From contig CBDDCD010000001.1 in assembly GCA_965226025.1 (NCBI GenBank), positions 74,104-138,103 of the forward strand: DNA of 64,000 bases, read 5' to 3'. The notes beneath the pieces were generated by a model. It was not told the origin of the DNA and did not search any database. It saw only the letters and a program-made list of their open reading frames with translations. This DNA comes from Candidatus Moanibacter sp. (GTDB lineage Bacteria; Verrucomicrobiota; Verrucomicrobiia; Opitutales; UBA2987). Shown here in pieces: positions 2,408-27,136 of the stretch (position 1 is the first letter of the stretch; each line of letters opens with the position of its first letter). Both the position numbers and the translations under genes were made by a program.

Positions 2408-2417
2408 TAGTATTTAA

Positions 2418-11400: not shown

Positions 11401-14250
11401 GGGATTCGATCTCGTCGAGTTCCACGCGCATGCCTCGGACTTTTATCTGTCGATCGACCCGGCCGTATATGGCGATGGTTCCATCCAGATCGTATCGTCC
11501 ATAGTCTCCGGTATAGTAGATGAGGTCATCGATATCTTCTGATTCTGGATTGCGTCTGAACTTCTCTTGCGTCAACACGGGATCTCGGAGGTAACCCTGA
11601 GTTCGAAATGGGGTACGGATAGCGATTTGGCCCTTTTCGCCTAAGCCGCACCTGACGCCCTCCCAATTGAGAACGAGGATCTGAGTATCGGGAAGCGGCC
11701 GGCCGATTGGCTGGACTCCCGGCGGTGGCTTTTCCGGGACTTCGTAAAAGCACTTGGCAAGAGTAGTCTCGGTCGGACCGTAAAGATTGATCACTCGAGT
11801 GCATTCCGGGAAGGCTCGACGCCACTGGTAGACGAGCGTGTCGGTGAGCGGTTCGCCCGCGAAGAAGACGGCACGAAGAGAAGAGGAAGCTGTATCAGGC
11901 GAATGATCGGCGAGCCATGCCTGGGCGAGACTGGGAACGGAATGCAGAAGAGTGATCCGTTCCGATGCTAACCAGGAAAGGATGTTGCCTGAGGAAAGAT
12001 CCTCAGCATCGCCAGGAATGCAAAGAGTAGCGCCGCTGGTCAGGGGTAGAAATATGTCTCGCAGAACGACGTCAAAAGAAAGTCCCGTCAGTTGCGCGAT
12101 TCGATCGCCAGGAACTGCCTGGATTTCCTCCCTTTGCCAATCAAGGAAGTGGGCTAACCCTTTGTGAGTCCCAAGGACGGCTTTGGGCACACCGGTTGAA
12201 CCGGAACTAAAGAACAGATAGGCCGGATCGTCTCCAGAAAGAATCGCAAAGTCCTCTTGGCCGCTCGCGCCGTCAATTATATGTCCTGAGTCGGCCTCGA
12301 CCCGGGCACGGAAAGATGCAGTCAGATCAGAGTCGTTTCCCGGCGAATCTTCTCTGGCCGCAACCGTGATCTCCCCTTTCGCCTGAGAGATATCCAACAT
12401 CTGCTTTCTCCGAGCCAAAGGAAGTCTGCGGTCCAGTGTGAGCAGGATACCTCCCGAGAGAAGAACGCCGACTATAGCACAGATCATCCCGTAACAGCGT
12501 CTTCCGGTAACCGCTACGACATCGCCCCTGCCGACTCCCACTTTTCGGAGATTCGATGCGATCGCCGCCGCCTGGTTGAAGAGATCTGAGTAACTGTGGG
12601 TGCGATTCCCGTGCCTCACTGCGGGATGCTCGGGATTCCTGGCGGTGCAAGATTCAATGCGGTCCAGAACGGTCTCTACCTTCCGTTCACGGATAGGTGA
12701 AGCGGGGTCCGGCAGGATGCGAAGCGCCTCTGGAGTAACGAGCGAGAATTCTGAGGTGGATGCATCCGGATTCTTGACAACCTTCCCTATTAGGCTGTCA
12801 AACTGCTGGAGGAACTCTTCTATTCGCGAGGCGGCAAAGAGATCGGCGTTGTAGACCAGATCGAATACCAGCGATTCCCCCGACGCCTTGAAATAGAGAG
12901 TGAGATCGAACTTGGACTGTACCTGCAAAGCCGCCGATTTTTCGGTTTCGAGTCCTTCGAGAGCGAACGGCTCATCGTCGATTTCCGTCTGGTTTATGAG
13001 GATCTGAACGAGCGGGGTGTGGCTGAGGTCGCGTTCCGGCTGCAGCGCCTCGACCAGCTTTTCAAAGGGAAAATTTTCGTGAGCAAAGGCGTCGAGTACC
13101 GTTTCTCTGACATCGCGTATAAGAGTCCGAAAAGACCTATTTGGGGAGAGCCTGGTTCTCAGAACAAGCGTATTGATGAAGCAGCCGATAATCGATTCGG
13201 TTTCAATGTTCTGTCGACCGGACGTGGGCGTCCCGACAACGATATCGTCCATCCCCGTATGCCGTTGCAGAAGGACCTGAAATACGGCCAGCACTCCCAT
13301 GAAAATCGATGCTTCCTCTTTTCTGCAGAGCTCTCGAAAGCGCCGCGTGACGGCATCGGAGACCTTCAGAGATTCCCGATTCCCGCGAAAGGTCTGAATG
13401 GCGGGACGCGGGTAATCGGTGGGAAGATCCAGAAGCGGTGGAATGTCTTCAAGTTGGGCCTTCCAGTATCGGAGATTCCTTTCGAGGACTTCGTCGCGCA
13501 TCCAGCTCTGCTGCCAGACGGCGTAATCTACATAGCGGCGCGCCGGACGGTTCACCACCCGTTCTCCGCCGTTCAGATTGGCTCGGTAGCTCTCCTGCAG
13601 CTCATTGAGAAGGAGTGTCAACGACCACCCGTCAGAGATGGTGTGGTGCATTTCGAGGAGAAGGAAGTAGGAGCGGGGACCGATTTTCACAAGCGTGGTT
13701 CGGAAGAGTGGTCCCTGATCCAGATCAAAGGGTGTCAGAGAAAGTCTCTCCAGGAGGCGGTTGCCTTCGGCCAATCGTGCATCCCGGCTTGCACCTTCAA
13801 CCTCAACAATTTCCATCCCTATCTTCAGATCGGGTCTGATCCTCTGGTAGGGTTCGTCCTCGACGAGCGTGAAAGTGGTGCGCAGGGATTCATGAGTGGC
13901 CGTTAGCTGGTTGATGCTTTTTCTCAGCGCGTCGATGTCGAGAGCGCCATCTAGGCGTACAGTCTGGTGAATATTGTAAACCGAACTATCCGGTTCCATC
14001 CGATGGAGAAACCAGAGTCTGCGCTGACCGAAGGAGAGAGGGAAATGTGTGGTCTCCGAAGCGGTTTCGATGGGGGGGCGTCGTCGAGTGCCTCCTTCTG
14101 TTCTCTGCTCTGCGATCTGTTTGCTCAGATCTCGAATTGTCGGCGATTCAAATACGGACCTAACCGATAGCTCCACATACAGATTCTCCCGGATCCTGGA
14201 TAGGACCCGAGTGGCGAGAAGGGAGTGGCCGCCCAGATCGAAGAAACTGT
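7800..14250 (-). repeat. tandem direct duplication of a complete NRPS C-A-T module (period 3228 bp)
   Basis: Identical shadow-ORF strings lie at 9372/12600 and 10128/13356, an offset of 3228. Below the deletion the offset is 3166 (7831 vs 10997). Confidence 0.85.
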
Positions 14251-16501
14251 CTGTGACGCCGACCTCTTCCACTTCGAGTACAGATTCCCAGATCGCCGCG
14301 AGAGTGCTCTCGATCTGGTTCCGCGGTGGTTCCAGATGATCGGCCATTGCAGATCGCCGCCGGCTCCATTGTGGTTTCGGCAGGGCCTGTCGATCGATCT
14401 TGCCGCCGGGAGTGAGCGGGAGATCTTCCAGAGCGATGAATGCCGATGGTATCATGTAATCGGGTAAATAATCGGCCAGAAACTCTCGCATCTCTCTGCC
14501 GGTCGGCTCGGCCGATTGACCGGCAACCAAATAGGCAATCAGGTGGCGATGCCCTCCGGTATCATAGGTAGCGACCGCACTCTGGTTGATCTTCGAATGC
14601 CGATTGAGAGTGGCTTCGATTTCTCCCAGTTCGATACGAAAGCCCCGTACTTTCACCTGGGAATCTCTGCGCCCGAGGAATTCGATGTTTCCGTTCGTAC
14701 GATACCGCGCAATGTCGCCCGTGTTGTAGATTCTGCCCTCGTGAAACGGATTCTGGACAAAATGCTCCCGGTTGAGCTTGGGCCGATTGAGGTAGCCGCG
14801 GGCAAGGCCGTCGCCACCTATGTACAGATCTCCGGGCAGACCTATAGGGACCGGTTGCAGATTTGAATCCAGAATATAAACCGTCGTGTTGGCAATAGGT
14901 CGGCCGATCGATACCGTCCCGTTATCGGGAGTAACCTTCTCCACGGTCGACCAGATGGTCGTTTCGGTTGGACCATAGAGATTCCAGACCGTGCCACTCG
15001 AGGATAGCAGAGAGTCGGCCAGATCGCGCGGCAGCGTTTCGCCTCCGCATAAGACTCTTAATTTGGGTTTTCCATTCCAGCCTGAATCCAGCATCTTCCT
15101 CCAGGTCGCCGGAGTCGCCTGCATGGTCGTGACCCCATGTTCATCAAGGAGCGCTGAAAGGCGTTGTCCGTCGATCGCTTCTTCGCGGGTTGCTATGACG
15201 ATCTGCGCCTCGGAGACCAGCGGGAGGAAAAGCTCGAGCACGGAGATGTCAAATGAGATTGAGGTGACGGCCAAAAGGATGTCGTCCGCATTGAGTCCAG
15301 GCCGATCCCGCATCGACGTGAGAAAATTCATTACCGAACGATGCGAAATCTCGACACCTTTGGGAGTGCCGGTAGATCCGGATGTGTAAATTATGTAGGC
15401 AAGAGATTGTGAAGTCTGTTCATTCGTCCGAGGGGCCGATTTTGCCTTCTCGATCCCTTCCACGCAAATTGGATTCCAGGAACCCCTTGGTAATGCTTTC
15501 GCCAAACCCGCCTCCGTCACCACAGCGGCCGGCTGCGCGTCATTCAGTATTTGTTCGAGACGATACTGCGGAAATGCCGGGTCGAGGGGAACGTAACATC
15601 CTCCCGCCTTTAGGATACCTAGAGCAGCGACCAGCATATCATTCGACCGGTCGACAAAGAGACCCACCGGTCTATCGATCGTAATCCCTTCACTCTTCAA
15701 GCGCATGGCCACACCATTGGCTCTTTGCTCAAGCTCGATGCGGGTAATGGATTGGCCGCCACACCTCACTGCCGTGGCATCTGGTGCCCGTGATGCGTGT
15801 TCTTCGACGAGTTGATGCAAACAGGTCTCCCCCGGGTATTCCGAGGCCGTTGCATTCCAATCCACGACGAGCTTTCTGCGTTCATCCGCAGGGATTATTC
15901 TGAGATTCGAGACCGCACTATCCATCTGATCGAGGGCACTCTGGCCGATTGTTTCGAAGTGCTCGTAGAAATGTTCAATCGTATCTTCTTCGAATTGGTT
16001 CGCCACGTAGTCCAGCTGGGCCCAATACCCTTCCTCCTTCCTGGTGATCTTCAAATGCAGGTCGACCTCAGCTTGATCGCCGGCTGCAGCTGCCGATTTT
16101 GGAGGGCTTTCACTCGTTTCTGGAAGCGGGTGGTCCGTAAATGTGAAGCCAAGCGGTTGATGTTTTGCTTCCACTTTGCTTGGAAACTCGTTTCCCGAAG
16201 CGAAACTCTGTACTGCACCGTTGACCCGCTTGAGCAGCACCTCGAAAGGGGGATCATCCCCAAAATCGACGGAAAAAGGCTGAAGAGCGTACTTTTGCCC
16301 GGACCTCGATTCCCCTCCCTCGCTATCGCTCTCAATAAATCGTACTGAGAGAACAGTTCGGTTTTCTTGCCAATATCGATAGACCAGCGACTTGAAGATG
16401 GCCAGCAAAGTAACGCCGAACCGCACTCTGTATTTCCGAGAAACACTCTCAATTGCGGTACTGAGATTGTGGCAGAGTGGATATTCCTCTGCGGTCACCA
16501 A
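8462..16501 (-). CDS. non-ribosomal peptide synthetase (partial C)-A1-T1-C2-A2-T2-C3-A3', terminated early by a frameshift
   Basis: 'SGSTGxPKG' occurs three times, 'GGHSLLA' twice and 'HHTISDGWS' twice. The last A domain reads 'NLYGPT' and then out-of-frame residues up to the stop. Confidence 0.9.
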   Translation of the reverse strand: MVTAEEYPLCHNLSTAIESVSRKYRVRFGVTLLAIFKSLVYRYWQENRTVLSVRFIESDSEGGESRSGQKYALQPFSVDFGDDPPFEVLLKRVNGAVQSFASGNEFPSKVEAKHQPLGFTFTDHPLPETSESPPKSAAAAGDQAEVDLHLKITRKEEGYWAQLDYVANQFEEDTIEHFYEHFETIGQSALDQMDSAVSNLRIIPADERRKLVVDWNATASEYPGETCLHQLVEEHASRAPDATAVRCGGQSITRIELEQRANGVAMRLKSEGITIDRPVGLFVDRSNDMLVAALGILKAGGCYVPLDPAFPQYRLEQILNDAQPAAVVTEAGLAKALPRGSWNPICVEGIEKAKSAPRTNEQTSQSLAYIIYTSGSTGTPKGVEISHRSVMNFLTSMRDRPGLNADDILLAVTSISFDISVLELFLPLVSEAQIVIATREEAIDGQRLSALLDEHGVTTMQATPATWRKMLDSGWNGKPKLRVLCGGETLPRDLADSLLSSSGTVWNLYGPTETTIWSTVEKVTPDNGTVSIGRPIANTTVYILDSNLQPVPIGLPGDLYIGGDGLARGYLNRPKLNREHFVQNPFHEGRIYNTGDIARYRTNGNIEFLGRRDSQVKVRGFRIELGEIEATLNRHSKINQSAVATYDTGGHRHLIAYLVAGQSAEPTGREMREFLADYLPDYMIPSAFIALEDLPLTPGGKIDRQALPKPQWSRRRSAMADHLEPPRNQIESTLAAIWESVLEVEEVGVTDSFFDLGGHSLLATRVLSRIRENLYVELSVRSVFESPTIRDLSKQIAEQRTEGGTRRRPPIETASETTHFPLSFGQRRLWFLHRMEPDSSVYNIHQTVRLDGALDIDALRKSINQLTATHESLRTTFTLVEDEPYQRIRPDLKIGMEIVEVEGASRDARLAEGNRLLERLSLTPFDLDQGPLFRTTLVKIGPRSYFLLLEMHHTISDGWSLTLLLNELQESYRANLNGGERVVNRPARRYVDYAVWQQSWMRDEVLERNLRYWKAQLEDIPPLLDLPTDYPRPAIQTFRGNRESLKVSDAVTRRFRELCRKEEASIFMGVLAVFQVLLQRHTGMDDIVVGTPTSGRQNIETESIIGCFINTLVLRTRLSPNRSFRTLIRDVRETVLDAFAHENFPFEKLVEALQPERDLSHTPLVQILINQTEIDDEPFALEGLETEKSAALQVQSKFDLTLYFKASGESLVFDLVYNADLFAASRIEEFLQQFDSLIGKVVKNPDASTSEFSLVTPEALRILPDPASPIRERKVETVLDRIESCTARNPEHPAVRHGNRTHSYSDLFNQAAAIASNLRKVGVGRGDVVAVTGRRCYGMICAIVGVLLSGGILLTLDRRLPLARRKQMLDISQAKGEITVAAREDSPGNDSDLTASFRARVEADSGHIIDGASGQEDFAILSGDDPAYLFFSSGSTGVPKAVLGTHKGLAHFLDWQREEIQAVPGDRIAQLTGLSFDVVLRDIFLPLTSGATLCIPGDAEDLSSGNILSWLASERITLLHSVPSLAQAWLADHSPDTASSSLRAVFFAGEPLTDTLVYQWRRAFPECTRVINLYGPTETTLAKCFYEVPEKPPPGVQPIGRPLPDTQILVLNWEGVRCGLGEKGQIAIRTPFRTQGYLRDPVLTQEKFRRNPESEDIDDLIYYTGDYGRYDLDGTIAIYGRVDRQIKVRGMRVELDEIESLLSGHASIQQCAVLPFEIKGSASSETVLELGIVAYVYPANRQPQLRGNLRKFLAAQLPDYMVPSIFVVLDEIPLTPNGKIDRKALPDPEKESEKEGNVYVKPGTWEESTLAGIWEKLLGRSRIGIDESFFEVGGHSLLAIRVISRIRKEFNVELSIRAIFESPSIRDLSRKIVEQQRSGGTRRLPPIESTPDSTHFPLSFCQRRLWFLHRMEPNSSVYNIRQTFRLRGGLDIDALRKSINELTATHESLRTTFTLVEGEPYQRIQPDLMTDLRVLEVQGASHETRLAEANRLLGRLSLTPFDLDQGPLFRTTLLEVGPRSYFLLLEMHHTISDGWSLTLLLNELQESYRANLNGGEWVVNRPARRYVDYAVWQQSWMRDEVLERNLRYWKAQLEDIPPLLDLPTDYPRPAIQTFRGYRESLKVSDAVTRRFRELCRKEEASIFMGVLAVFQILLQRHTGMDDIVVGTPTSGRQNIETESIIGCFINTLVLRTRLSSDQSFRTLLGDVKETVLNAFAHEDMPFEKLVEALQPERDLSHTPLVQILINQTEIDDEPFALEGLETEKSAASQVQSKFDLTLYFKASGESLVFDLVYNADLFAAARMEDFIRQFDSLMGQVVDNPDGLMLSFQLVTPMALRILPDLASPIRERRVETVLNRIESCTARNPEHPAVRHGNRTHSYSDLFNQAAAIASHLRKVGVGRGDFVAITGRRSYGMICAIVGVLLSGGVLLTLDRRLPLARRKQMLDISQAKGLITVAAREDWPENDLDLTASFRGRVEADSGQIVDGASGQEDFAILSGDDPAYLFFSSGSTGVPKAILGTHKGLAHFLEWQREEIQTVGGDRIAQLTGLSFDVVLRDIFLPLTSGATLCIPGDAEDLSSGSILSWLASERITLLHSVPSLAQAWFADASPKEISSSLRAVFFAGEPLTDTLVYQWRRAFPECARVINLYGPTNRPAASRYSDPHSQSGRRQMRIGRKG

Positions 16502-17131
16502 CTTGAGGGACGGCGAAATACGCGGCCGGTCGGTGGGTAAGCTCGCTCGGGTAGATGCAACCGTACGTTGGGTTCGTGAGACCGAATCCTCCGCGGGATA
16601 AGATTCCCCCCCTGTCCTCGAGAAATTCTGCGTTTTTCATCTGGTCCCTAGAGAGACGATTGCAGTATGGATGTGCCCACGCGCAATCAGCAGGAGCAGA
16701 CGCCGGCGAATCGATATCGAGCTATATTCCTAGAGGATTAACCTTGATCTGTCGACTCGGGATTTTGCAGGAAATTCGGTTAGCTCAATCCCCGCGCGTC
16801 TGGCTACAGTGATCGACTCCGTGCAGCCCTACGCTTGAATGCAGAGCTTAGCGGAAGTTTGCGCTCCCATCCTGAGGATATTTTCGCCGGAAGAATCCCA
16901 GACATGGCGCAATGCGCGAGCACAAGTAGGATAGTAGTGTCCTTTAGTCCGACTGCCGCATCAGCTATTCCTCTCAGATTCCTCCCGAGTTTGCTGCAGG
17001 ACAATGCCCTTCGTTGCCTCTCCTTGCCACACCCCTAAAATCGATCAGACTCGTTTAAGGAGCTGATTTATAGATACTTGATTGAACAACAAAGACTTAC
17101 ATCAATAAACAGCCTAACGCAGGAGGGCGAT

Positions 17132-17154
17132 TTCGAATCCCGCCCTCTCCGCCA
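17132..17154 (+). other. tRNA-Ser-like 3' fragment (T-loop, acceptor and CCA), not a complete tRNA
   Basis: 'TTCGAATCCCGCCCTCTCCGCCA' is identical to the reverse complement of 27109-27131. No 5' acceptor 'GGAGAGG' lies upstream. Confidence 0.6.
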
Positions 17155-17881
17155 ATTCTCGCCGGAGGCGATAATTGAGCCCGCGCGAAGCGCGCGGAGA
17201 GGAAGGTATGAGCAATGTTTTCGAGTGCGCTGGCTTGACAGCGCTTTTCCCCAGCGAGGCTTGACTCGCCGATCTTGTCCACCCCTTTTCAATCCCAAGA
17301 ATCCAAACCTCATGCCGTCGAAAGGGCCGCGAACCTGGCTTCCTTTTGGTGGGTTCTTTCATGCAATAGAACGAGCGTACCGCAGCCGGAGCAATCAGAA
17401 GACGCGAAGCAACGATAATCAGCTGTTTAGCAAAATGCCTTTCTCGTCTGGCCTCCGCCAGTCTGTCCGCCCTCGTACTGGATGGGCCAGTACGAACCGA
17501 TTGCCGCAAGCGCAGCCGATTCAGGTAGCAATCGAAGCACCAAATTGAGAGGATGGTATGCCACTGACAAGACCCTACTTTTCGTTTCTACACTGTCAGA
17601 AACTCCACCTTCAAAAGACAGATCGCTAATCCGCAGCAACCACGCGAGGATGTTCAATTACCCCGAAGATGCCCCCTACTGCCATCTCCACTGGATCGCC
17701 GAAGCGGAAGGGAATCCTCTCCGGTCGCGTTGGGTCGAATGTTTGCGCGATCTCGAATGGATCAGGTAACGAGAGTTGCTCGAATTCCGAAGCGTGTGCG
17801 GTCACGGAAGGAGGTGGGAAAGAGGTCAGGCTTCCTATTTGGGGCTGGCCTGACGATGTTTATTTCCAAAGCCTGACCCGT

Positions 17882-18158: not shown

Positions 18159-19283
18159 CTATTGTAGTGCTGCTTCAAGGCGAACAAGCGACTGCGACTC
18201 GCCAAACTGACTCTTCACCGATTTCTTCTTACCGGTGGCCCAGTGGATTGTGATCGAGCAGTCCCTCAAGCCCGATCGGTAGAGTGGTTCCAAAAGCCTC
18301 AATCCGTCAATCTGTTTAGACTGCAATTCGTTGTAACGCTTCAAGAACTCGGGTGAGGAAAATGTGCGAAGTTGTGTCGTGGGGAGGACTGAGGCCCGCG
18401 CACGATAAGTAAAGCGGCGACGCTCTCCGTTTTGAACTAGGCCGAACTCCTCGTCGTCTTCCTCTAGGATAAAAAGAACGGAGATGGAGTCGTTAGGTTT
18501 GGGCGAATCTGTCTTAACAGCCAGAGTGCCCACTGGATTAATGCTAGTTGGCTTCCCTCCAACATTTGAAACATCAATTGTCAGCGTAAAGGTAGGAACG
18601 GGCGAGGTAGGATCGACCCGGTCGATTACATCTGAAAGCGTTTGCAAGAACTCTTTTGTCTCAGTGACTACCTTGGTGTGGTGGGTGCCGACGAGCGCAA
18701 CAATATCCTTTGCGTTTGGTGGCGGAGGCCGATTTTGGTTAGCCCCCATCAACGCACCAATTATATTCATCGGATTGATTGGGCGTTGCAAATTCGTGCT
18801 CCGAAATTGTTGCGCCTTACGGCGATCTTGTACTGATACGCCTTTCAATCTGCTAGTATATTCGAGAACTGTATCAATATACTCACGGTTAGAAACGTAA
18901 AAGGCCGTATAATCAGTATTCGGTGCTATTTTCCACGCTGAATGGTTCTGGAGAGTTGGGTAGGCAATGTGGACGTTCTTAAGATCATCTCGTCTTTGGA
19001 GGATGTCTCCATAGGTAAGTTTGTTCGTATTGATCTTCTTCCGCCAATCATTGCCACCAATTTCTTTTGCGAGATTTGCCTGATCGGCGGGGGTGAGCGG
19101 CATGAGCCATTGGGACTTGAATGGTGTGGTCGATCTGATCTCCACCACATCGAACGACAGACGGGGACGATTAATCAGGTTCTTGATTGGCTCACCAACG
19201 AAGGCACCGAGTAAAACTCCAGCGAGCAGTAGTGTAACGTTTCCAAGTGGAGTATTGATGAAGCGTCTTTGATCGGAGGACAT
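18159..19283 (-). CDS. hypothetical single-pass membrane protein (374 aa), cassette cargo
   Basis: A long ORF with an N-terminal TM segment 'VTLLLAGVLLGAFVG'. I recognise no family. Confidence 0.6.
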   Translation of the reverse strand: MSSDQRRFINTPLGNVTLLLAGVLLGAFVGEPIKNLINRPRLSFDVVEIRSTTPFKSQWLMPLTPADQANLAKEIGGNDWRKKINTNKLTYGDILQRRDDLKNVHIAYPTLQNHSAWKIAPNTDYTAFYVSNREYIDTVLEYTSRLKGVSVQDRRKAQQFRSTNLQRPINPMNIIGALMGANQNRPPPPNAKDIVALVGTHHTKVVTETKEFLQTLSDVIDRVDPTSPVPTFTLTIDVSNVGGKPTSINPVGTLAVKTDSPKPNDSISVLFILEEDDEEFGLVQNGERRRFTYRARASVLPTTQLRTFSSPEFLKRYNELQSKQIDGLRLLEPLYRSGLRDCSITIHWATGKKKSVKSQFGESQSLVRLEAALQ

Positions 19284-19567
19284 CGTGTAGGGCTGTTTTC
19301 TAAGGCCAACTCTCTTATAGGCAGCGCTGACGCGTCTGCCGTTATGTCACGATAGCAATTTGGCCGCGTTGGGCAAGATTTCTCTCTAACCTCCTCTCAA
19401 CGAGTGGATTGCCTCACACCGGACGGCATGAACCGCGGATTTTTATTGATGCGTCAGCGCTGCCTATTCCGAAGCGTCGACGCTGCCTATCAAATTAATG
19501 AGATGCGCGGACGCATCATTTTATCACTTTGACCTCGCTGATTCTGATTCGCCTTCGGGCTGGCGAG

Positions 19568-19733
19568 TCAAAAGAGTTTGAGTTGGGGGTCTTGGGGGGA
19601 TGTCTTGCGGCGGCGATAGGGGCGGACTAGGCGGTTGGCTTCGGCGAGGAGGTCGACGGTTCTGTCGGTGGCTTCCGGATTTCGGCGGGAGGCGTCGAGA
19701 GCGAAAATGGCTCGCAATTAGGTTTGCGCTCTT
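19568..19733 (-). repeat. inter-cassette module copy R1 (micro-ORF copy with TTG start only)
   Basis: Hand translation gives 'RAIFALDASRRNPEATDRTVDLLAEANRLVRPYRRRKTSPQDPQLKLF*'. Confidence 0.7.
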
Positions 19734-19768
19734 TTGCAGAAGGTTTGGGAGGAGTTGGTTCAGGACTC

Positions 19769-19975
19769 TTAGAAGAGTTCGAGTTGGGGGACTTTGGGGG
19801 AGGGTTTGCGGCGGCGGCGGGGGCGGACGAGGCGGTTGGCGTCTGCTAGGATGTGGACGGTGAGGTCTTTCGCCTCTGGGGGAAGACGAGAGGGATCGAG
19901 GGCGAGTTCGATGGCGTTGCGGATGTGCTTGTGCGCATTGCAATTTGGTATAGGTTTGAGCTGATTAGGGCGCAA
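19769..19975 (-). CDS. module micro-ORF, most intact copy (R2, 68 aa)
   Basis: It has an ATG start. The sequence '...KHIRNAIELALDPSRLPPEAKDLTVHILADANRLVRPRRRRKPSPKVPQLELF*' is homologous to five other copies. Confidence 0.45.
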   Translation of the reverse strand: MRPNQLKPIPNCNAHKHIRNAIELALDPSRLPPEAKDLTVHILADANRLVRPRRRRKPSPKVPQLELF

Positions 19976-20130
19976 GAGGGCGGAAGTGTGCGAAGATCAA
20001 CGGGTTACGGAGTCAGGAAGAGGAAAAATCGAGTTTGGCCATTTTCAGGCGAAATCAGTCTGATTGCAAAGGGTTTGGCCGTAGGAATAGTCGAGTTTGC
20101 AATTAGGTTTGGCACCGAGAAGATCAGATG
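19976..20130 (-). promoter_or_regulatory. upstream half of module: repeated TTTGCAATTAGGTTTGG boxes and a conserved CAACGGGTTA block
   Basis: Boxes lie at 20062-20080 and 20093-20113, with a weaker one at 19940-19965. Confidence 0.4.
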
Positions 20131-20152
20131 CAGGGCTCCTGAATGTCCGCGC

Positions 20153-20692
20153 TCACGGGCCGGAAGTCCGCCGCTTCGCATCCTGCCGCCGGTCCGTGTG
20201 TGTTAAGGAGTGATCGCGCTGGCGAACTTCCTCAACGAGCCTTAGAGCTCTTAATTCGAAGGTCCTTAAGGATGCTAGAACCATCTCAGTCTGTACGATG
20301 CTAAGCGCTTCAACAACACCCATGTAGGTCTCAAGAAATTCCTTCTCCAGTTCCGAAAGCTCTCGAAAACCAAAGACTCTAAGGGCTGTCGATGCTCGCT
20401 TAGACACCGTCTCACGGTATCTATTGAGCTGTAATACTAATTTCTCCGAATCAAAATCTGTAAAATGCCTTTTCGACGTTTGCAGCCCAATTCGTTTCGC
20501 AAGCCATGGCAAGTATCCGTTTAACAACGCGATCGAAAAAGCTAGGAGAAGAGTCAGTACAAAGTACTCTGTTATTTTGATTCCCAGTATCGATACGTTT
20601 GTCAACGGAGGTAGCGTCCAAGCTATGGAGAGCACCAAAACCAACCAAGAAATGCAGTACATGACGACACGCGCCATGATGTGCCTCTGCAA
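20153..20692 (-). CDS. hypothetical membrane protein (2 TM N-terminus, helical C-terminus), cassette cargo
   Basis: TM segments are 'VVMYCISWLVLVLSIAW' and 'YFVLTLLLAFSIALL'. The ORF overlaps the upstream ORF by 55-70 nt. Confidence 0.5.
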   Translation of the reverse strand: MQRHIMARVVMYCISWLVLVLSIAWTLPPLTNVSILGIKITEYFVLTLLLAFSIALLNGYLPWLAKRIGLQTSKRHFTDFDSEKLVLQLNRYRETVSKRASTALRVFGFRELSELEKEFLETYMGVVEALSIVQTEMVLASLRTFELRALRLVEEVRQRDHSLTHTDRRQDAKRRTSGP

Positions 20693-20979
20693 AGTCTTGA
20701 TCGTGTAGTTGGCATGTGGCGTGATTTGCGTAGCTTATCTAGGATCGCTTTCACGTCATTGCGCGTCTCTCTTTTATCAATCGTAGTGACGTCGAGGAAA
20801 TACTCGTTCTCAACGACCTCCTTAACCTTCTTGTTGCTGCGAGAGAACTGAAACCCTGTTTGTCCAATTGAAAGAAATGCGGACAGACCCGAGAGAGCAG
20901 TGACTATTAACGTAAAGGTGGCGGGATCCACGTCCTGATCTTCTAATTTTCTTATAGGCAGCGCGAAAGCATCTGCCAT
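20623..20979 (-). CDS. hypothetical small membrane protein (118 aa), cassette cargo
   Basis: One TM segment, 'FTLIVTALSGLSAFLSIG'. The C-terminal ~30 aa look like read-through into the next gene. Confidence 0.4.
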   Translation of the reverse strand: MADAFALPIRKLEDQDVDPATFTLIVTALSGLSAFLSIGQTGFQFSRSNKKVKEVVENEYFLDVTTIDKRETRNDVKAILDKLRKSRHMPTTRSRLCRGTSWRVSSCTAFLGWFWCSP

Positions 20980-21054
20980 TTTGTGAGAATAACACTTCCG
21001 CCGCTTTCGGCAAGATCTCTGTATAACGTTCTCTTGACGAGTTGATTACACCAG

Positions 21055-21175
21055 ATTCTGGCTCGCAATCAGATTTGCGAACTTTCGCAGAAGGTTTGGA
21101 GGAAGCTGGTTCAGGATTCTCAGAAGAGATTAAGTTGGGGGTCGTAGGCGAAGGTTCTGTCGCTCGCAACGAGAT
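21055..21175 (-). repeat. truncated module copy (duplicate of the R2/R1 junction plus an internally deleted repeat)
   Basis: 21055-21130 parallels 19711-19790 ('GCTCGCAAT.AG.TTTGCG...GCAGAAGGTTTGG.AGGAG.TGGTTCAGGA.TCT.AGAAGAG'). Confidence 0.6.
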
Positions 21176-21246
21176 TTGGACATTTTCGCAGAGGGTTTGA
21201 GCTTTCCTGCGGATCTCGTAACTCGCGCAGACAGAAATCCGGGATG

Positions 21247-21415
21247 CTAAAAGAGCTCGAGTTGGGGGTCTTTCGGGGATTATTTGCGCCGGCGGTGGGG
21301 GCGGACGAGGCGGTTGGCTTCGGCTAGGATGTAGGCGGTTTGATCGGTGGCTTTGGGGGACAGTTTGGATGGATCGAAGGCGAGGTCGATGGCATTGCGG
21401 ATGGCTGGTCTGCGA
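21247..21415 (-). repeat. inter-cassette module copy R3 (micro-ORF with an in-frame TAA)
   Basis: 'AIRNAIDLAFDPSKLSPKATDQTAYILAEANRLVRPHRRRK*SPKDPQLELF*'. The internal stop is at 21280-21282. Confidence 0.7.
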
Positions 21416-21553
21416 CCAGGCTGGGCCGCTGTAATTGATGCGGGGACGACAGTGAAAGCAACTCAGTAACCGGATAGAATCAGCGTTTCGGGAACTGATG
21501 TTGTCGATAGAAGCAAATCAACGGCAGTATTCCACTTCCGGAGCATCCAACGG

Positions 21554-22075
21554 TTACTCCGCGCCGGCCGACCACCACAAGAGTTTTCTGATGAAATAGT
21601 AATTACCAACGCTAAGAAGACCAAAGCCCAAGAGGAAAGAAAAGGTCGTTAAGTAGCCAATCGGCACCCAAATAAGCCTATCAGTGAAACTTTGTTCACC
21701 ATCCTTAGTACTGAATGTTTTGGGTGGTAGAGCGGTGTTGTAGCTAATCCGGACGTTTCGAAGTCTCAAATATTCGGTATGAAGCAACCACGTTACCGCA
21801 ACACAGAGAGTAAGAGCCACACCTAGTATAAACTCGCCGACATCCTTTAACGGGGCGAAATCGTTAACTTTGAAGTGCGGGGCGACATTCAGCGTGATAA
21901 TCGAAAACCCAAGCCGATACGAACTGCGCCAGTAGTGAGTTTGTCTAAGCTGATATTCGTCAAAAATTAGCCGCGCCAGGTCAGGATCGTAATCTCGGGC
22001 TTCAGGAGACATCAAATTACCTACCACTGCGGCCGTTTGAAGGGAACTCAGCGAAATACAGGCATTCGTCGCCAC
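21554..22075 (-). CDS. hypothetical multi-TM protein (173 aa), cassette cargo
   Basis: The ORF has three or more hydrophobic segments, for example 'FILGVALTLCVAVTWLL' and 'LTTFSFLLGFGLLSVG'. Confidence 0.55.
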   Translation of the reverse strand: MATNACISLSSLQTAAVVGNLMSPEARDYDPDLARLIFDEYQLRQTHYWRSSYRLGFSIITLNVAPHFKVNDFAPLKDVGEFILGVALTLCVAVTWLLHTEYLRLRNVRISYNTALPPKTFSTKDGEQSFTDRLIWVPIGYLTTFSFLLGFGLLSVGNYYFIRKLLWWSAGAE

Positions 22076-22224
22076 CTGATGGAGCTTGGGTAGAATTGAG
22101 CGTCATAACTACAGTGAGATTGCTTATGCGCAATCGATGATCCTAAGAGGTAACACGGTCGGCATTCTGCGTCAAGAAACTGATCTCTGTATTTTATGCG
22201 TAGGCGATTGCCTACACCGGAGGC

Positions 22225-22395
22225 TCAAAAGAGTTCGAGTTGGGGGTCTTTGGGGGAGGTTTTGCGGCGGCCGTGGGGGCGGACGAGGCGGTTGGCTTCG
22301 GCGAGGATGTAGACGGTTTGATCGGTGGCCTCCTTGATTCGGCGGGAGTCGTCGAGGGCGAGATCGATGGCGTAGAATCTCGCACTTAGGTTTGG
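22225..22395 (-). repeat. inter-cassette module copy R4 (micro-ORF without canonical start)
   Basis: '...YAIDLALDDSRRIKEATDQTVYILAEANRLVRPHGRRKTSPKDPQLELF*'. The frame opens after a TAA with no ATG, GTG or TTG. Confidence 0.7.
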
Positions 22396-22560
22396 GCATT
22401 GGCGAATCAGCGCGATTTAGGGCGGAAGTACACGGATATCAACGACTTAGGTATCAGTCAAAAGTGAAATACGAGTTTGCGCACTTCTTGGGTCAGATCG
22501 GGGTGTTTGCAATTGGTTTGAGCACTGAGAAATGCGAGTTTGCAGTTAGGTTTGGGTACT
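22396..22560 (-). promoter_or_regulatory. upstream half of module with box repeats
   Basis: Boxes lie at 22503-22523 and 22536-22556. The block 'GGATATCAACGACTTAGG' is also present. Confidence 0.4.
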
Positions 22561-22685
22561 CAACAAGACAGAGGTGACCGGGTTGGCGGACCAACGGAGT
22601 TGACGCTGACGCACAGATAATCGTAAACGAAGGAAACGACATTGAAAGACGGAAAAGCGAGTCAACCCCTGTTCACCGTTTTGTT

Positions 22686-24146
22686 TCAGGAAAGGTGCGT
22701 TGTCGGAGGTGATTCTCTTGCAGAGTTGTCGGTTGCAAGTGCTTTGACCACCCTTTCGAGCTCGCGATCGAATAGGTCGCCGTTGTCTTTCCAACCATTG
22801 AAATCTGCTGCGAGGCGGGATGTTACTTGCATTGCCTTACCACTCTTCCATTGGCCGGAAAGCAAGAATCCGTCGAGGTCAAGGGGAATGAGTGCTAGCA
22901 CTTTTCTGCCGCGTTCTTTCATGAGTTTCTGTTCCTTCTTAAACGCGGCATCGATCTCATTATCAACCCACCAACTGGTCAGAGAATATTCTGATGCACA
23001 CAGAAGGATCTTGTCCCACAGCCGAATCCCGCGATCCACTTGGTCGTAAATGTCATCACCGGGTAACATTTGTTTTTCGTCTAGCCAGCACCGAATGCCG
23101 CGGCCCTGTAGCGCATCATGTAGCCGCCGTGCGAACGACTTGTCTTCATGGCTGTAACTAATGAAGCACGAATAGAACTCTAGAGCGTGGCCTGTTAACG
23201 AAGGGAGGTATGTGATGAGATTGTCCGTGATCCCGCAGCCGCGAAGAAAGTGATCAGGGATCTTACCTCTAGAACGAGTCAGTGTATCAACATCAATACT
23301 ACTCGGTCCAGAATGCACGATCGTGTCCAACCCTTTGACGGTCGAGAGGTCGATTCCACTTAATCTCACCTTCTCGAATTGAGCCTTGTCGAGTTGCACA
23401 TCGGTCATCACAGTGTTCTCAAGTTGTGCATGGGACAGGTTCGCGTTCGTTAGGTCTGCGCCCGACAGATCAGCGCCGATGCAAATACATGACAAATCCG
23501 CCCAAATGACATGCTGCGAGAGGTTTGCACATTCAAGGTCCGCATCAGTGAGGTTGGCGTTGCGAAGTTTAGCGCCAGATAACATGCTCCACCCCAAATC
23601 GGTATCGGTTAGCTCCGCCTCGGTGAAATCAACGAGCTGTAAGAAAGCACCCCTCAAATTCGCACCGCGTAGATTCGCCTCTCGAAATGACGCCCATTTC
23701 AGAATCGCCCCTGCAATGTTGCAGTAACTCAAGCTCGCCTTGGTGAGGTCCGTTCCGATAATGTTCCTCCTTCCTTCGGAATTCAGGATTTCATCCGCAT
23801 CTAGGTTAACCGTTCTTAGGTCGCATTGACTAAGATCCGCGCCACACATTATTGCCCCGCGCAGATCGAGGCCACGCAGGTCAATGTCGGTGAGGTCGGC
23901 TCCTGTCAAATCAAGACGAACATGTGAATCCTCGACACGCCGGGCTGCATTTTCGGTACGCCATTTCGTAACGGCTCCACAACCTCTCCGTAAGAGCGTG
24001 ACGTGCTCGGGATTTGCCATTGGTGTTGGCAGCTTCGTTCGCTGCGTTCGGCTGAATGTTGTGCGTATTTCAAGACACAACTCAAGATAGATTGCGTTTA
24101 CGCGATGGCTGTCTTGGAAAACAGCACTATCGCGAGCCACGGTCAA
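22686..24146 (-). CDS. pentapeptide-repeat protein fused to a C-terminal TIR domain (486 aa)
   Basis: There is a long run of A(D/N)LxG-type pentapeptides. The TIR-like region is 'FISYSHEDKSFARRLHDALQGRGIRCWLDEKQMLPGD...SWWVDNEI'. Confidence 0.8.
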   Translation of the reverse strand: MTVARDSAVFQDSHRVNAIYLELCLEIRTTFSRTQRTKLPTPMANPEHVTLLRRGCGAVTKWRTENAARRVEDSHVRLDLTGADLTDIDLRGLDLRGAIMCGADLSQCDLRTVNLDADEILNSEGRRNIIGTDLTKASLSYCNIAGAILKWASFREANLRGANLRGAFLQLVDFTEAELTDTDLGWSMLSGAKLRNANLTDADLECANLSQHVIWADLSCICIGADLSGADLTNANLSHAQLENTVMTDVQLDKAQFEKVRLSGIDLSTVKGLDTIVHSGPSSIDVDTLTRSRGKIPDHFLRGCGITDNLITYLPSLTGHALEFYSCFISYSHEDKSFARRLHDALQGRGIRCWLDEKQMLPGDDIYDQVDRGIRLWDKILLCASEYSLTSWWVDNEIDAAFKKEQKLMKERGRKVLALIPLDLDGFLLSGQWKSGKAMQVTSRLAADFNGWKDNGDLFDRELERVVKALATDNSARESPPTTHLS

Positions 24147-24189
24147 GAAGCCTCGCTATCTGATTCAAATACAAGGGATTGTGTAACTA

Positions 24190-24250
24190 GCATTCAGGTT
24201 TGCAAACTTTCGCAGAAGCGGAATTTGCAATTAGGTTTGGGCATTCAGTT
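24190..24250 (-). promoter_or_regulatory. partial module (box repeats only) between the DUF4062 and TIR genes
   Basis: 'AATTTGCAATTAGGTTTGGGC' at 24222-24242 and 'CAGGTTTGCAAAC' at 24196-24212. Confidence 0.4.
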
Positions 24251-24423
24251 GGGGAAAAGGGCCAGGATCGGTATGAATGGATTGTGAGAGTGATTGATCT
24301 CTGCATTTCTGGGATTGACGTTAGGATTGGGATGGTAGTGGATGAAGCTAGATACTTTCGCTTGGAGGAACTACTCCGTTTGCGGTAGAATCGCTTCAGA
24401 AGATATACTCGAAGTCTAACAGC

Positions 24424-25326
24424 TCACCAGGTTGATCCCTGTGGGTTGGAATCTCCCAAGGCCGCGGTCTTAACTTTCTCGGATTCAAGCTTGTTAAAGA
24501 AGATACGGCCCGCATCCGAGATAGTGTATTGAGAAGGACCTGTCCTGCTGAGCAGGCCGAGCCTGTAAAGCTGATCAGTTTCAGATCGGGCAAAACGGCC
24601 AGAACCTCTGTCGAAAAGTTGATCTCGATTTTCTTCCATCCATTCGAGCAGACCTTTATCGATCACGATATCCCTTAGTTCAGCGAAAGTGAGCCCATTA
24701 AGTAGCGTGTCTTGCCTACCACTTTCAACCTGGCTTCGTAGCAGGGAGTTCTCGCGACTCAGCCGGGTGATCTCATCGGTTACTGCAGGCATGTTCACCT
24801 GTGTCGAGGATCGTACCCAGCCTTCGAGATCTTCGCGACGAGAGAATTCACCGAGGGTCTGATGTATCGACAGCTGGATATCCTTCTCATCGTTCCAAAA
24901 TCCCACTGTCTTTTTTTGAACCAGATCTCGAAACTCTGCGAGTTTATCAGCTTCTTCGGTCTCCCTGGCTTCGGGTCCCAGACGGCGAACTTTCTCATCA
25001 AGCGCTGGCTGCTCGATCACACAGGAAAACAGAGCCAATCCTTTTTCCAAAGCGTATTTATACTCCACTTCTATGTAGCTTCTGCCTGTTTTCGGGTCGA
25101 TACTACCGTATCGACCTGCCAGGATCAGGAGGAACACGTCTGATTGGTTGATCCACTGCTTTATGACCTCCATCTGCGACTCATCGCCAGCTGCAAAAAG
25201 CTCCATACCAGCGGGAATGTGTCCAGCCGACAAGATTGCCTCGACTCCCGCCTGCCTTTCCACTTTTAGATCGGTGTACGTTGAGGAGACAAATACCTGC
25301 AGGCGTTTTTTAAGGAAGTCGACCAT
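24424..25326 (-). CDS. DUF4062 (TIR-like) domain protein with a helical/wHTH-like C-terminus (300 aa)
   Basis: The N-terminus 'VFVSSTYTDLKVERQAGVEAILSAGHIPAGMELF' matches the DUF4062 signature. Confidence 0.7.
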   Translation of the reverse strand: MVDFLKKRLQVFVSSTYTDLKVERQAGVEAILSAGHIPAGMELFAAGDESQMEVIKQWINQSDVFLLILAGRYGSIDPKTGRSYIEVEYKYALEKGLALFSCVIEQPALDEKVRRLGPEARETEEADKLAEFRDLVQKKTVGFWNDEKDIQLSIHQTLGEFSRREDLEGWVRSSTQVNMPAVTDEITRLSRENSLLRSQVESGRQDTLLNGLTFAELRDIVIDKGLLEWMEENRDQLFDRGSGRFARSETDQLYRLGLLSRTGPSQYTISDAGRIFFNKLESEKVKTAALGDSNPQGSTW

Positions 25327-25405
25327 AGGACGATTGTCGGAATTTCCCCCTTCCTTTCAAGGGAGTCAATCTACTTAGAGATCGTCGCGAATGAGCTTTG
25401 ATTCT

Positions 25406-25575
25406 TCAGCTGCCGAAAAGTTCCAGCTGCGAGATTTGTGTCATCTTGCGGCGGCGGGGGGGGGGCGGACGAGGCGGTTGGCTTCGGCGAGGATGTAGAC
25501 GGTTTGATCCGTGGCTTCCTTGATTCGGCGAGATGCGTCGAGAGCGAGGTCGATGGCGTTGCGGATGTGCTTCAT
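25406..25575 (-). pseudogene. inter-cassette module copy R5: micro-ORF with ATG, out of frame at a C10/G10 tract
   Basis: 'MKHIRNAIDLALDASRRIKEATDQTVYILAEANRLVRPPP' runs into the homopolymer. The conserved tail 'RRRKMTQISQLELFGS*' is in the +1 frame. Confidence 0.5.
25456..25465. repeat. G10 (C10 on coding strand) homopolymer inside micro-ORF copy R5
   Basis: Counted directly: 'gcggcggcGGGGGGGGGGcggac'. Confidence 0.9.
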
Positions 25576-25745
25576 GAGCCTTGCAAAGAAGCTTGAGCAT
25601 TCGCGAATTAGGACGGAATAGAGCGGAAGTCAGCGAATAGCAACGGGTTAGGGGACTCATGGGGTGAGAGATCGAGTTTGAGCACTTTGGGGCTATATTT
25701 TAGGGGGTTTGCACATGGTTTGAGCACTTTTCGAGTTATTGCAAG
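25576..25745 (-). promoter_or_regulatory. upstream half of module with box repeats
   Basis: 'GGTTTGCACATGGTTTGAGC' at 25706-25725, 'CGAGTTTGAGC' and 'AGCAACGGGTTAGG'. Confidence 0.4.
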
Positions 25746-25774
25746 GAGTCCGATAGACAGTTTCTGGACGATTG

Positions 25775-26200
25775 CTAACCAACCGGTTGGTTATCTTTCG
25801 CTCTAGGAGTTTCAGAACGAGGTGGGGCGGCGGCCGCACTGTCTTCAGCCTCTTGTACGTCAATTCTCTGCCGGATTGCTCTCACCACCTCAGCGATCGG
25901 TGTGCGCGTCCGCCACCAGGAGATTAAGAGATATACGCCCATCAGATTCCCAACCACGGAGACGACTATACACAAATTCTCAGCGATCTGACTCCGAAAG
26001 GTTGCCGTACACAGGGCCAATATACTTGAGAACGCCATTGTCAGCAGAAAGACCGCGAAATTCAGCTGGATTGATGCGGGGGACCCTTTCTCAAGCAGGT
26101 CCAGTTCGTTTTCCTTGACTTCAAAAAGGTCGACGGATGCGACTCGACCTCGTCGCACTTGGAGAGGCTTGCTATCCGTTGGGTGTGAGGGAGAACTCAT
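25775..26200 (-). CDS. hypothetical 2-TM protein (141 aa), cassette cargo
   Basis: TM segments are 'FAVFLLTMAFSSILALC' and 'LCIVVSVVGNLMGVYLLISWW'. Its start lies 1 nt after the stop of the upstream ORF. Confidence 0.55.
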   Translation of the reverse strand: MSSPSHPTDSKPLQVRRGRVASVDLFEVKENELDLLEKGSPASIQLNFAVFLLTMAFSSILALCTATFRSQIAENLCIVVSVVGNLMGVYLLISWWRTRTPIAEVVRAIRQRIDVQEAEDSAAAAPPRSETPRAKDNQPVG

Positions 26201-26201
26201 C

Positions 26202-26471
26202 CTATAGATTCTCCCTCAGCCACTTGTCGTATGCCTCGCCGAAGCTATTGAACCAAGCTGCTTCAGTACCAGATCTGACCACGAAGACGCGTTCTCCTTG
26301 GTCAAGGACATTCTGGATTTTGTCCCTAATCTCGACGGCCCTCTGTTCTGTGTTAATCGCCCAACAGTGGTCGTGTATGGGACAATAGTAACGATAGGAT
26401 TTCAGAAATTCCTGCACCTTATCATTGGATGCCTCAGAGTTCGTCTGAAATGTAACGATGTAGCAGGTCAT
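26202..26471 (-). CDS. hypothetical small soluble protein (89 aa), cassette cargo, translationally coupled to the 2-TM gene
   Basis: A compact ORF with alternating beta/alpha-like sequence. I recognise no family. Confidence 0.5.
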   Translation of the reverse strand: MTCYIVTFQTNSEASNDKVQEFLKSYRYYCPIHDHCWAINTEQRAVEIRDKIQNVLDQGERVFVVRSGTEAAWFNSFGEAYDKWLRENL

Positions 26472-26745
26472 CGCGATTCCTTTCCTATAGCTGTCAACAT
26501 GGAAATCTCGTCATTTGGAGAGGGTTGGTCGAGCAGGTCTTCGATGCTCTTCAGGCATAGAAGTGGCTTTCTTGCAGCATTTCAAGGGTCTTTGAGGAGT
26601 TTCTATGGTAAAGAGCCTGAGAGTCCAAATGAGATCCTCAGCATCGACTTTCCTGCACACTTTCTTGTCCTTTTACGCGTAGCTTTGTCGTCGCACTTCA
26701 AAGATGGGCAGTCGCGAGCGAATCCGTCGGGCGAGGAAAGTGAGC

Positions 26746-26830
26746 TTAGAATAGCTCGAGTTGGAGGTCTTTGGGGATTGTTTGCGGGGGCGGTGGGGTC
26801 GGATGAGGCGGTTGGCTTCGGCTAGGAGTT
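26746..26830 (-). repeat. truncated and frameshifted module copy R6 (3' ~85 bp only)
   Basis: 'LAEANRLIRPHRPRK', then a frame change, then 'QTIPKDLQLELF*'. Confidence 0.6.
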
Positions 26831-27108
26831 ACACGGTCGAGTCTAACGCTCATCGAATGGAAAATTTGGAACTTGGGTATTTGTGGGACCACTGAAGCTC
26901 GGAAAATTTGGGACAGAGGGCGCGTTTCCCATGTTTCTTTTTCTACGCTTTCTCCAATATCAGGAGAATCTAAGAGCTCCTTTCCGTCATCCTCAATACT
27001 CCGCGCCATCGGCGATTCTCGTCACATTTATTCTTACCGCCATTCTGAAACGGTCTACCTGCCGATCATAAAAGTATGTAAACATTTGAATAGAAATGTC
27101 TGACAAAA

Positions 27109-27136
27109 TGGCGGAGAGGGCGGGATTCGAACCCGC
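27109..27136 (-). other. tRNA-Ser-like 3' fragment (complete T-arm, acceptor, CCA), not a complete tRNA
   Basis: The reverse complement is 'GCGGGTTCGAATCCCGCCCTCTCCGCCA'. No matching 5' acceptor or foldable anticodon arm lies in the next 100 nt. Confidence 0.6.

Follow-up and report, generated by a model that had tools for sequence, protein, structure and literature searches.

Several mobile elements are known to couple transposition to the replisome, through TnsE in Tn7, TnpA in Tn3 and a number of insertion sequence (IS) transposases. The sliding-clamp-binding motif of TnsE is reportedly PQLELARALFL, and Tn7-like islands at attTn7 are said to result from repeated transposon insertion and decay at one attachment site. 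Here we describe a 64,000-nucleotide (nt) stretch of DNA from Candidatus Moanibacter sp. (contig CBDDCD010000001.1, positions 74,104 to 138,103; referred to as the window, with coordinates counted from its first nucleotide), in which a tRNA-linked array of cargo genes contains short related peptide-coding repeats on the minus strand. These repeats had been presented as a self-contained family of micro open reading frames (micro-ORFs). They are likely to be 5'-truncated 3' ends of the gene for an unannotated all-alpha protein of ~170 amino acids (aa), whose unnamed family is labeled X in this analysis, and an apparently orphan micro-ORF family becomes explicable as a set of transposon-gene tails.

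The same short motif is reported to link transposition to the replisome in Tn3-family TnpA, in transposases of many IS families and in IS608 TnpA (PMC11417375, PMC4549789, PMC3971601, PMC5027513). Clamp recruitment also has precedents in Tn7 TnsE, with which PMC12153342 is concerned, and in a group II intron protein. The motif of Tn3 TnpA and of the IS transposases is carried by the catalytic transposase, whereas X is a separate small subunit. The consensus for binding to the beta clamp is QL(S/D)LF, with QLxLF peptides being the best binders and position 3 being tolerant, and when the motif is C-terminal, as in Pol II and Pol IV, the free carboxylate contributes to binding (PMC11139829).

The repeats share a 26-nt core, GGGCGGACGAGGCGGTTGGCTTCGGC, which has six plus-strand sites with at most two mismatches (19620, 19821, 21299, 22277, 25463 and 26797) and none in 100 shuffled sequences; a repeat finder grouped the same six places. 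Their minus-strand translation agrees letter for letter with the six related peptides of the original prediction, and the ORFs at 19524-19943, 22172-22399 and 25406-25660 do represent a Pro/Arg-rich wrong frame. A seventh fragment, R7 (21120-21158), which encodes RTFAYDPQLNLF followed by a stop codon, was absent from that prediction. No copies beyond R1-R7 were found by tblastn of the window, and a tblastn search with the related protein P0003 (described below) recovered R1-R6 with E-values from 1.6e-21 to 2.9e-6.

All copies are minus-strand 3' fragments of an X gene in different states of decay, and their motifs read QLELF, QLKLF or QLNLF. R1 (19568-19717) is a truncated fragment that corresponds to residues ~122-165 of P0003 and ends with QLKLF. 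R2 (19769-19975) has an open frame ending with QLELF, and its homology to X begins at KHIRNAI (19930). R7 is a truncated 12-codon remnant followed by the same 22 nt and box pair as R2. R3 (21247-21414) contains an in-frame TAA, lacks a start codon and ends with QLELF, as does R4 (22225-22380), which has an intact frame without a canonical start. R5 (25406-25575) is a mini-ORF that starts with ATG, is frameshifted in a C10 run (G10 on the plus strand, about 25452-25466) and ends with QLELFGS. R6 (26746-26849), which ends with QLELF, is shorter than any other multi-helix remnant; its frame contains one stop and is shifted by -1 in a C run, and its homology reaches slightly beyond the limit given previously, to about 26849. 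Because of these stops, frameshifts, missing starts or severe truncations, most copies are dead today.

The start codons had been read differently. R2 was said to be the only copy with both an ATG and an intact frame, but the ATG at its junction is out of frame and its only canonical in-frame start is a TTG at 19975. It is R5 that has an in-frame ATG, at 25575. Furthermore, R5 is intact in L038, an independent assembly of the same array (99.67% identity over 13.4 kb), where a C8 run yields a 55-aa ORF, MKHIRNAIDLALDASRRIKEATDQTVYILAEANRLVRPPRRRKMTQISQLELYGS, ending with QLELYGS. The frameshifted form of R5 recurs in L039, which is 100% identical, and in P0002, a truncated R5 ORF. Indels between L038 and the window were observed at 20728, 21409-21424 and 25464-25465; the 1-nt difference at 20728 splits a 275-aa membrane-protein gene into ORFs of 118 and 179 aa in the window, and the 16-nt indel at 21409-21424 lies immediately upstream of R3. 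These indels are either strain polymorphisms or long-read homopolymer errors.

Protein-level constraint on the window copies was confirmed by a codon-aware alignment of five of them with one copy from another locus. Substitutions at codon positions 1, 2 and 3 number 32, 26 and 44, respectively; the pooled pN/pS ratio is 0.49 in the peptide frame, compared with 1.13 and 1.59 when the remaining two frames are read. Between pairs of copies, dN/dS ranges from 0.25 to 0.68, and three of the five indels are multiples of three. The earlier view of a real or recently real protein is therefore upheld as one of purifying selection, supported by this frame-specific signal. Of its R4-R5 comparison (five of six differences synonymous across 31 codons), the five synonymous third-position changes stand, whereas by a manual count the remaining difference is one non-synonymous codon (GAC/GCA, two nucleotides) and the alignment spans 32 codons. 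The end of the frame is the most informative part: across the last six codons of 15 DNA copies from the window and its relatives, Q, L, L and F are kept through synonymous changes only (CAA/CAG; CTC/CTT/CTG/CTA/TTG/TTA; TTT/TTC), and motif position 3, which can be E, K, N, S or Q, is the sole varying residue. Each of the three stop codons is found among the copies at one and the same place, directly after F in 14 of them.

A different explanation holds that the copies are purely a DNA- or RNA-level repeat (a recombination site, transposon end, integron attC-like site or structured RNA) and that the open frame arose by chance. Their sharp common 3' boundary with variable 5' extents would suit it, as would their position, reminiscent of cassette boundaries, between cargo genes that all point one way, and the 17-nt sequence AAGCACATCCGCAACGC, which is identical even in distant relatives. 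However, the frame-specific pN/pS signal is that of coding DNA. None of the four modules (described below) contains an inverted repeat longer than 11 nt, so that an attC-like hairpin is absent, and integron attC sites were rejected on this ground; the Rfam search returned no family except one tRNA. The existence of homologues with 43-46% aa identity and extensive synonymous codon replacement effectively refutes such a repeat, and the terminus of the intact IS lies 91 nt beyond the stop codon rather than in the motif codons. We consider this explanation very improbable.

The homologues were reached stepwise. A word-indexed protein search and scans of GTDB and JGI contigs with the window-lineage peptides returned the same lineage only, and 31 matches from a degenerate DNA pattern scan of GTDB genomes were all chance matches confined to the pattern itself. 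The lineage contains further X copies outside this array, at loci that belong to the window's organism or to one very close to it: P0001 (65 aa), found about 240 nt downstream of tRNA-Asn in L006, and P0003 (165 aa), located near tRNA-His in L040 from the same metagenome series. An exhaustive HMMER search with the window peptide profile detected P0003 (E-value 5.8e-26), the last 53 residues of which are the micro-ORF, and P0006, a 70-aa relative of 44% identity that ends with QLSLF. A JGI scan with P0006 then led to intact genes of 175 aa and 169 aa (L042 and L044, respectively). P0003 and the 169-aa protein share 46% identity over 134 residues (E-value 1e-38). Given this homology and the longer relatives, the micro-ORF represents the C-terminal third of X, and not the self-contained family proposed before. 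More generally, short conserved ORFs with favorable dN/dS values may be fragments of longer genes.

A profile of the intact X genes collected 455 proteins, with a median length of 170 aa among the 119 that were fetched. All members are annotated as hypothetical and none has a Pfam domain; neither the micro-ORF nor full-length X matched Pfam, PHROGs or NCBIfam, and an IMG/VR scan with P0003 gave no relatives. The previous statement that the peptide could not be assigned to any family is therefore right in that no Pfam, NCBIfam or PDB match exists, but the copies do belong to the 455-member family X. The conserved N-terminal core of the full-length protein, FHRDRRMLLYALTWP...YLLKCLQDWFQH, was found nowhere in the window, where all copies begin at or after KHIRNAI.

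Several observations concern the break points of X fragments. They recur near ...FPxYLLKCLQ... and just after KHIRNA(I/L), as seen in L045 (1-130), L041 (8268-8375 and 8571-8813) and L040 (12571-12711). In L045, AT-rich DNA breaks up an X gene of intact appearance precisely where R2 and R5 begin. There may be a preferred insertion or recombination point here within X. The 17-nt sequence mentioned above is shared by L045, L040 and the window despite an overall protein identity of ~45%. At the P0001 locus, a degenerate tRNA-like duplicate precedes tRNA-Asn (L006 2532-2684), and a 17-nt T-arm repeat (2926-2942; 16 of 17 positions identical) lies ~240 nt downstream, fused directly to the start of the P0001 ORF; since the repeat runs into the ORF start, the N-terminus of P0001 is regarded as partly tRNA-derived.

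The full-length X model obtained with AlphaFold2 from a 60-sequence alignment is all-alpha, with helices predicted at residues 7-21, 29-57, 64-81, 91-126 and 128-155. The mean pLDDT is 73, with high confidence for residues ~40-120 and a disordered tail; the last ~14-18 residues are predicted as low-pLDDT coil both in this model and in that of the short form represented by the micro-ORF (the mini-form), which reaches a moderate pLDDT of 68. The helical core is well conserved and the last helix is variable, followed by a basic disordered linker and the terminal pentapeptide. The helical part, basic patch and conserved C-terminus noted in the window peptides recur in X in the same layout of helices, basic linker and QLxLF tail. 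A PDB sequence-profile search with X gave nothing below an E-value of 0.4, and a Foldseek search with X nothing below 1.8; fold searches of PDB gave no significant match for the mini-form model either.

The tail is the most invariant feature of X. In 116 of the 119 fetched members, the protein ends with Q[L/M]x[L/M/W/F][F/L], most often QLSLF (65 members), QMSLF (19) or QLPLF (15), and a basic, predicted-disordered linker precedes the motif. Judged by the pentapeptide itself, by the constraint on positions 1, 2, 4 and 5 and by the predicted-disordered free C-terminus, the tails of X and of the window copies match the beta-sliding-clamp-binding motif and are candidate clamp ligands. The X pentapeptide would then occupy the hydrophobic cleft of DnaN, the beta sliding clamp, and docked X would tether a transposase/ATPase machinery to clamp-loaded, replicating DNA. 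No result of the analysis favors the binding of the putative peptide to the TTTGCAATTAGGTTTGG boxes, which had also been considered.

Intact X genes occur on Verrucomicrobia-type metagenomic contigs as part of a compact, clearly mobile four-gene IS. In L042 and in L048-L055, the latter being eight contexts of one identical X protein (P0024), the gene order is DUF6431, rve DDE transposase, AAA_22 ATPase and X. The DUF6431 protein has about 180-200 aa. The transposase combines rve with HTH_32 and, in L042, a weak Mu-transposase-C-like match. X is the fourth and last gene and overlaps the ATPase gene by 4 nt, being translationally coupled to it. Comparison of insertion contexts of one identical element with at least four different flanks set its limits at L048 207-3737 (3.53 kb), with TGT...ACA ends and 7-bp target duplications (AAATTGG at one site and AAAACAT at another). 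In one case, the whole contig is the element with just 3 nt added (L048 207-3740). The right terminus lies 91 nt past the X stop codon in L048. A repeat search of L042 alone found no terminal inverted repeats.

Two known families were considered for this element and rejected. Its best NCBIfam match, transpos_IS481, scores 194.4 bits, below the cut-off of 224, and the element has four genes instead of the single gene of IS481. Its ATPase is AAA_22/AAA_30 and not IstB_IS21, and the IS21 transposase model scores 67 bits, below the cut-off of 160. X genes are also found apart from a transposase: L046 (9001-9519) contains full-length X as a solo gene on an Opitutaceae contig, and in L047 (3527-6448) X follows a 139-aa ORF and an AAA_22 gene beside a tyrosine-recombinase gene. 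These transposase-free cases imply that the module decays or recombines in other lineages too.

Among the described systems, TnsE resembles X as a transposon-encoded, non-catalytic accessory protein that has a clamp motif and accompanies a DDE (rve-type) transposase and an AAA+ ATPase, and the predicted role of both is the steering of insertion to replicating DNA. However, TnsE has 538 aa and an internal motif, whereas X is an all-alpha protein of ~170 aa with the motif at its extreme C-terminus; searches of Pfam, NCBIfam and PDB sequences and with Foldseek revealed no homology of X to TnsE or to a TniQ domain. Unlike Tn7, the X element is only 3.5 kb long and has four genes, without TnsA or TnsD. 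As in IS21 IstA/IstB, Tn552/Tn5053 TniA/TniB and Mu A/B, a single operon encodes first an rve transposase whose tail is Mu-transposase-C-like and then a helper ATPase of the P-loop type, but the X element differs from these modules in having AAA_22 in place of IstB_IS21, in the additional DUF6431 and X genes, and in the lack of TniQ or a resolvase. If the proposed role is true, a separate small clamp adaptor beside a transposase/ATPase pair would be a new architectural solution to the coupling of transposition with replication. With its 3.5-kb size, defined ends and five-residue motif, the system is experimentally tractable. The analysis also brings out an unannotated, widespread family of at least 455 proteins with a C-terminal clamp-binding motif as its signature.

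The array that holds the window copies is bracketed by tRNA remnants. A tRNA-Ser-like 3' fragment at 27106-27136 (minus strand) bounds it on one side, and its inverted partner at 17127-17157 (plus strand) lies ~10 kb away across the cargo genes; a third such fragment is located at 2387-2408 (plus strand), and none of the three is called by ARAGORN. In minus-strand order, the tRNA-Ser-like fragment is followed, about 260-280 nt downstream, by R6 and then by cargo-gene units separated by X remnants. No inverted repeats of at least 30 nt exist in the 17-29 kb region besides the tRNA fragments. The latter may be remnants of att sites, perhaps marking an inversion.

R2, R4 and R5 are each preceded by a non-coding module of ~185 nt on the minus strand. 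The R2 module (19931-20115) consists of CAAACC-N3-5-TGCRA boxes and a conserved spacer, the R4 module (22381-22560) is homologous to it, and the 3' end of the R5 module (25576-25745) directly joins the ATG of the mini-ORF. The three modules share 61-70% identity, and a homologue at L040 12344-12530 precedes a longer, decayed X fragment. A related element is the box pair CCAAACCTTCTGCAAAAGAGCGCAAACCTAATTGCGAGC on the minus strand (19710-19747), with further pairs at 21061-21098, 21162-21199 and 24186-24240. For R2 and R7, the pair lies 22 nt beyond the stop codon, and for R3 this distance is about 50 nt. Similarity ends at ...TTGCGAGC (...GCGAGC at the R2 pair), abutting the truncated R1, whose 5' end touches the terminal box, and the truncated R7. 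In L040, the same box pair occurs inverted, 33 nt after tRNA-His. The box pair may mark an element terminus. As all 15 boxes of the array have one orientation, a role as classical inverted transposon ends is doubtful.

We read the array, with a confidence somewhere between probable and likely, as a tRNA-linked hotspot that has become a graveyard for X-bearing elements, in which most copies are now dead relics. The window copies would be leftovers of the repeated arrival and deletion of X-bearing elements in a tRNA-linked island, and their synonymous-biased divergence would be the imprint of selection on functional ancestors. The window is similar to Tn7-like islands in that its tRNA-linked cargo array, with defence-like genes such as those for TIR and DUF4062 proteins, is interspersed with transposition-gene remnants and with repeats that resemble ends; it differs from them in having one type of end in one orientation (15 boxes, minus strand) and no transposase remnants.

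The tandem, same-orientation, 3'-anchored pattern of the copies could alternatively reflect duplication of the 3' end of a chromosomal target gene at att sites by successive integrative elements, a scheme that the proximity of tRNA-Asn in L006, of tRNA-His in L040 and of the tRNA-Ser-like fragment in the window would also fit. However, the copies differ by dS of 0.3-0.8, which is far too much for duplications of one resident target, and the divergence of the entire array between its two assemblies is just 0.3%; the 5' break points of the copies are heterogeneous, and the Phage_integrase domain was detected in none of the 10 array or flanking ORFs scanned, a subset of the window ORFs. Finally, intact X is a transposon gene and not a host gene. 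Such an origin appears exceedingly improbable.

The graveyard interpretation has its own difficulties. The window's lineage lacks an intact X or a linked transposase/ATPase by tblastn, and searches with the L048 and L042 proteins found no DUF6431, rve or AAA_22 remnants in the window, L001-L006, L040 or L041; instead, the copies of this lineage follow the 185-nt box module. Their former membership in the four-gene IS is presumed by extrapolation from relatives that are only ~45% identical, and the predicted clamp binding of X draws on the motif, its position and its conservation. The sequences that follow the copies are of at least five different kinds, and in each the similarity extends no further than the stop codon, which is unexpected under simple IS decay because the right end of the element, 91 nt past the X stop in L048, should persist. 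Three copies are still open ORFs (R2, R5 in L038 and P0001), more than pure decay predicts. No unique scenario of nested insertions and deletions was reached for the box-pair/R1, second box-pair/R7 and module/R2/R4/R5 junctions.

Some of these points raise the possibility that the R2/R4/R5 type, in which the 185-nt box module is joined to ATG-KHIRNAI...QLELF, is or was until recently a functional clamp-binding peptide of ~55 aa, a suggestion that we regard as doubtful. Its origin would be an internal deletion by which the final 54 codons of X acquired the promoter- or operator-like module together with a new ATG, which is likewise no better than an outside chance. R2 and R5 share the module/KHIRNAI junction to within one nucleotide, and for this reason their common ancestor was already truncated; R2, R4 and R5 together descend from such a truncated ancestor. 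The dN/dS ratio is 0.25 for R2-R5 (Fisher p 1.5e-4) and 0.27 for R4-R5 (p 1.4e-3), and dN, at 0.14-0.21, is far below the divergence of the non-coding module, for which K is 0.5-0.56. This combination indicates that selection probably acted on the truncated 54-55-aa form for some time. In addition, the ATG of R5 is positioned precisely at the junction and opens an intact frame in L038, and P0001 and R2 are open reading frames.

Precedents exist for small proteins that act via a clamp-binding tail, namely MuC (PMC12867686) and T4 gp33 (PMC7892883). With a small helical body and a terminal clamp motif, the phage Mu C/Mor family and gp33 are the closest analogues of a hypothetical functional mini-X, but they have no sequence similarity to it, and no sign of RNA polymerase or DNA binding by mini-X emerged. 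Against a function, the R2 ATG and the R4 junction region have been lost, and R5 is frameshifted in the window as well as in L039 and P0002. R5 in L038 has an F-to-Y replacement in the motif and two extra residues after it. The mini-ORFs have no convincing ribosome-binding site, and the mini-form lacks the conserved X core and is modeled with only moderate confidence. Moreover, gene conversion from full-length copies could mimic purifying selection.

If functional, the peptide might compete with full-length X or other clamp clients, leading to transposition immunity or replication-coupled regulation of the island. A captured mini-form could have a dominant-negative effect, conferring 'immunity' to further insertions that depend on X, or could regulate the defence-gene island in a replication-coupled manner, and it would be a transposon-derived peptide acting on a central replication hub. 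The most far-reaching proposal is put forward only tentatively, as an unlikely case: X would represent a novel type of subunit dedicated to clamp tethering in an undescribed four-gene IS, and its mini-form would have been captured behind the box module in this lineage, described as planctomycete-like, and kept under purifying selection. Decaying tails of X-bearing elements remain the preferred account of the array.

The cargo genes between the X fragments (18159-26471, minus strand) encode a 374-aa protein, the 275-aa membrane protein that is split by a frameshift in the window, a 173-aa membrane protein, and proteins of 141 and 89 aa, as well as a pentapeptide-TIR protein (22686-24146, minus strand) and a DUF4062 protein (24424-25326, minus strand). 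Pentapeptide-repeat plus TIR and DUF4062 cargo are both typical of anti-phage defence islands, and the corresponding region of the relative L041 contains a SIR2_2 gene. Scans of the array for promoters and terminators showed no enrichment over shuffles. At the P0001 locus, a 741-aa 'Transposase_29-like' ORF downstream of P0001 was considered as a partner gene and rejected, as its Pfam match is weak and below the cut-off and the window holds no relative of it; this ORF probably represents one more neighbor or cargo gene.

A leader or 5'-untranslated region (5'-UTR)-like element on the minus strand (19308-19410) lies upstream of unrelated cargo genes, with a second copy at 20945-21047 and another in L040 before a globin-like gene. 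R1 with its downstream flank is 94% identical to the P0003 copy at L040 10387-10760. This 374-nt stretch (19306-19679 in the window) comprises the R1 tail and the leader with repeated TAGGCAGCG / CGCTGCCTA motifs, and it precedes unrelated genes, namely that of the 374-aa protein in the window and, in L040, one for a globin-like protein that is secreted. The stretch could serve as a portable module with a promoter or 5'-UTR role.

Outside the array, two inverted copies of an IS of ~1.82 kb (56933-58752 and 61163-62983) encode a 492-aa protein with a faint DDE_Tnp_1 match. They are 99.5-99.9% identical to the same IS in L001-L006, and because of this near-identity these contigs, including the L006 locus of P0001, are linked to the window's organism or a very close one. 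At the junction of the minus-strand ORFs 6847-8478 and 8462-16501, a 2679-aa non-ribosomal peptide synthetase (NRPS) ORF leaves its frame within the conserved 'NLYGPTETT' adenylation motif (8462-8478), where its translation is ...NLYGPTNRPAAS... The overlap with the next ORF is 17 nt, and a larger NRPS gene seems to have been frameshifted here, either in reality or through an assembly error.

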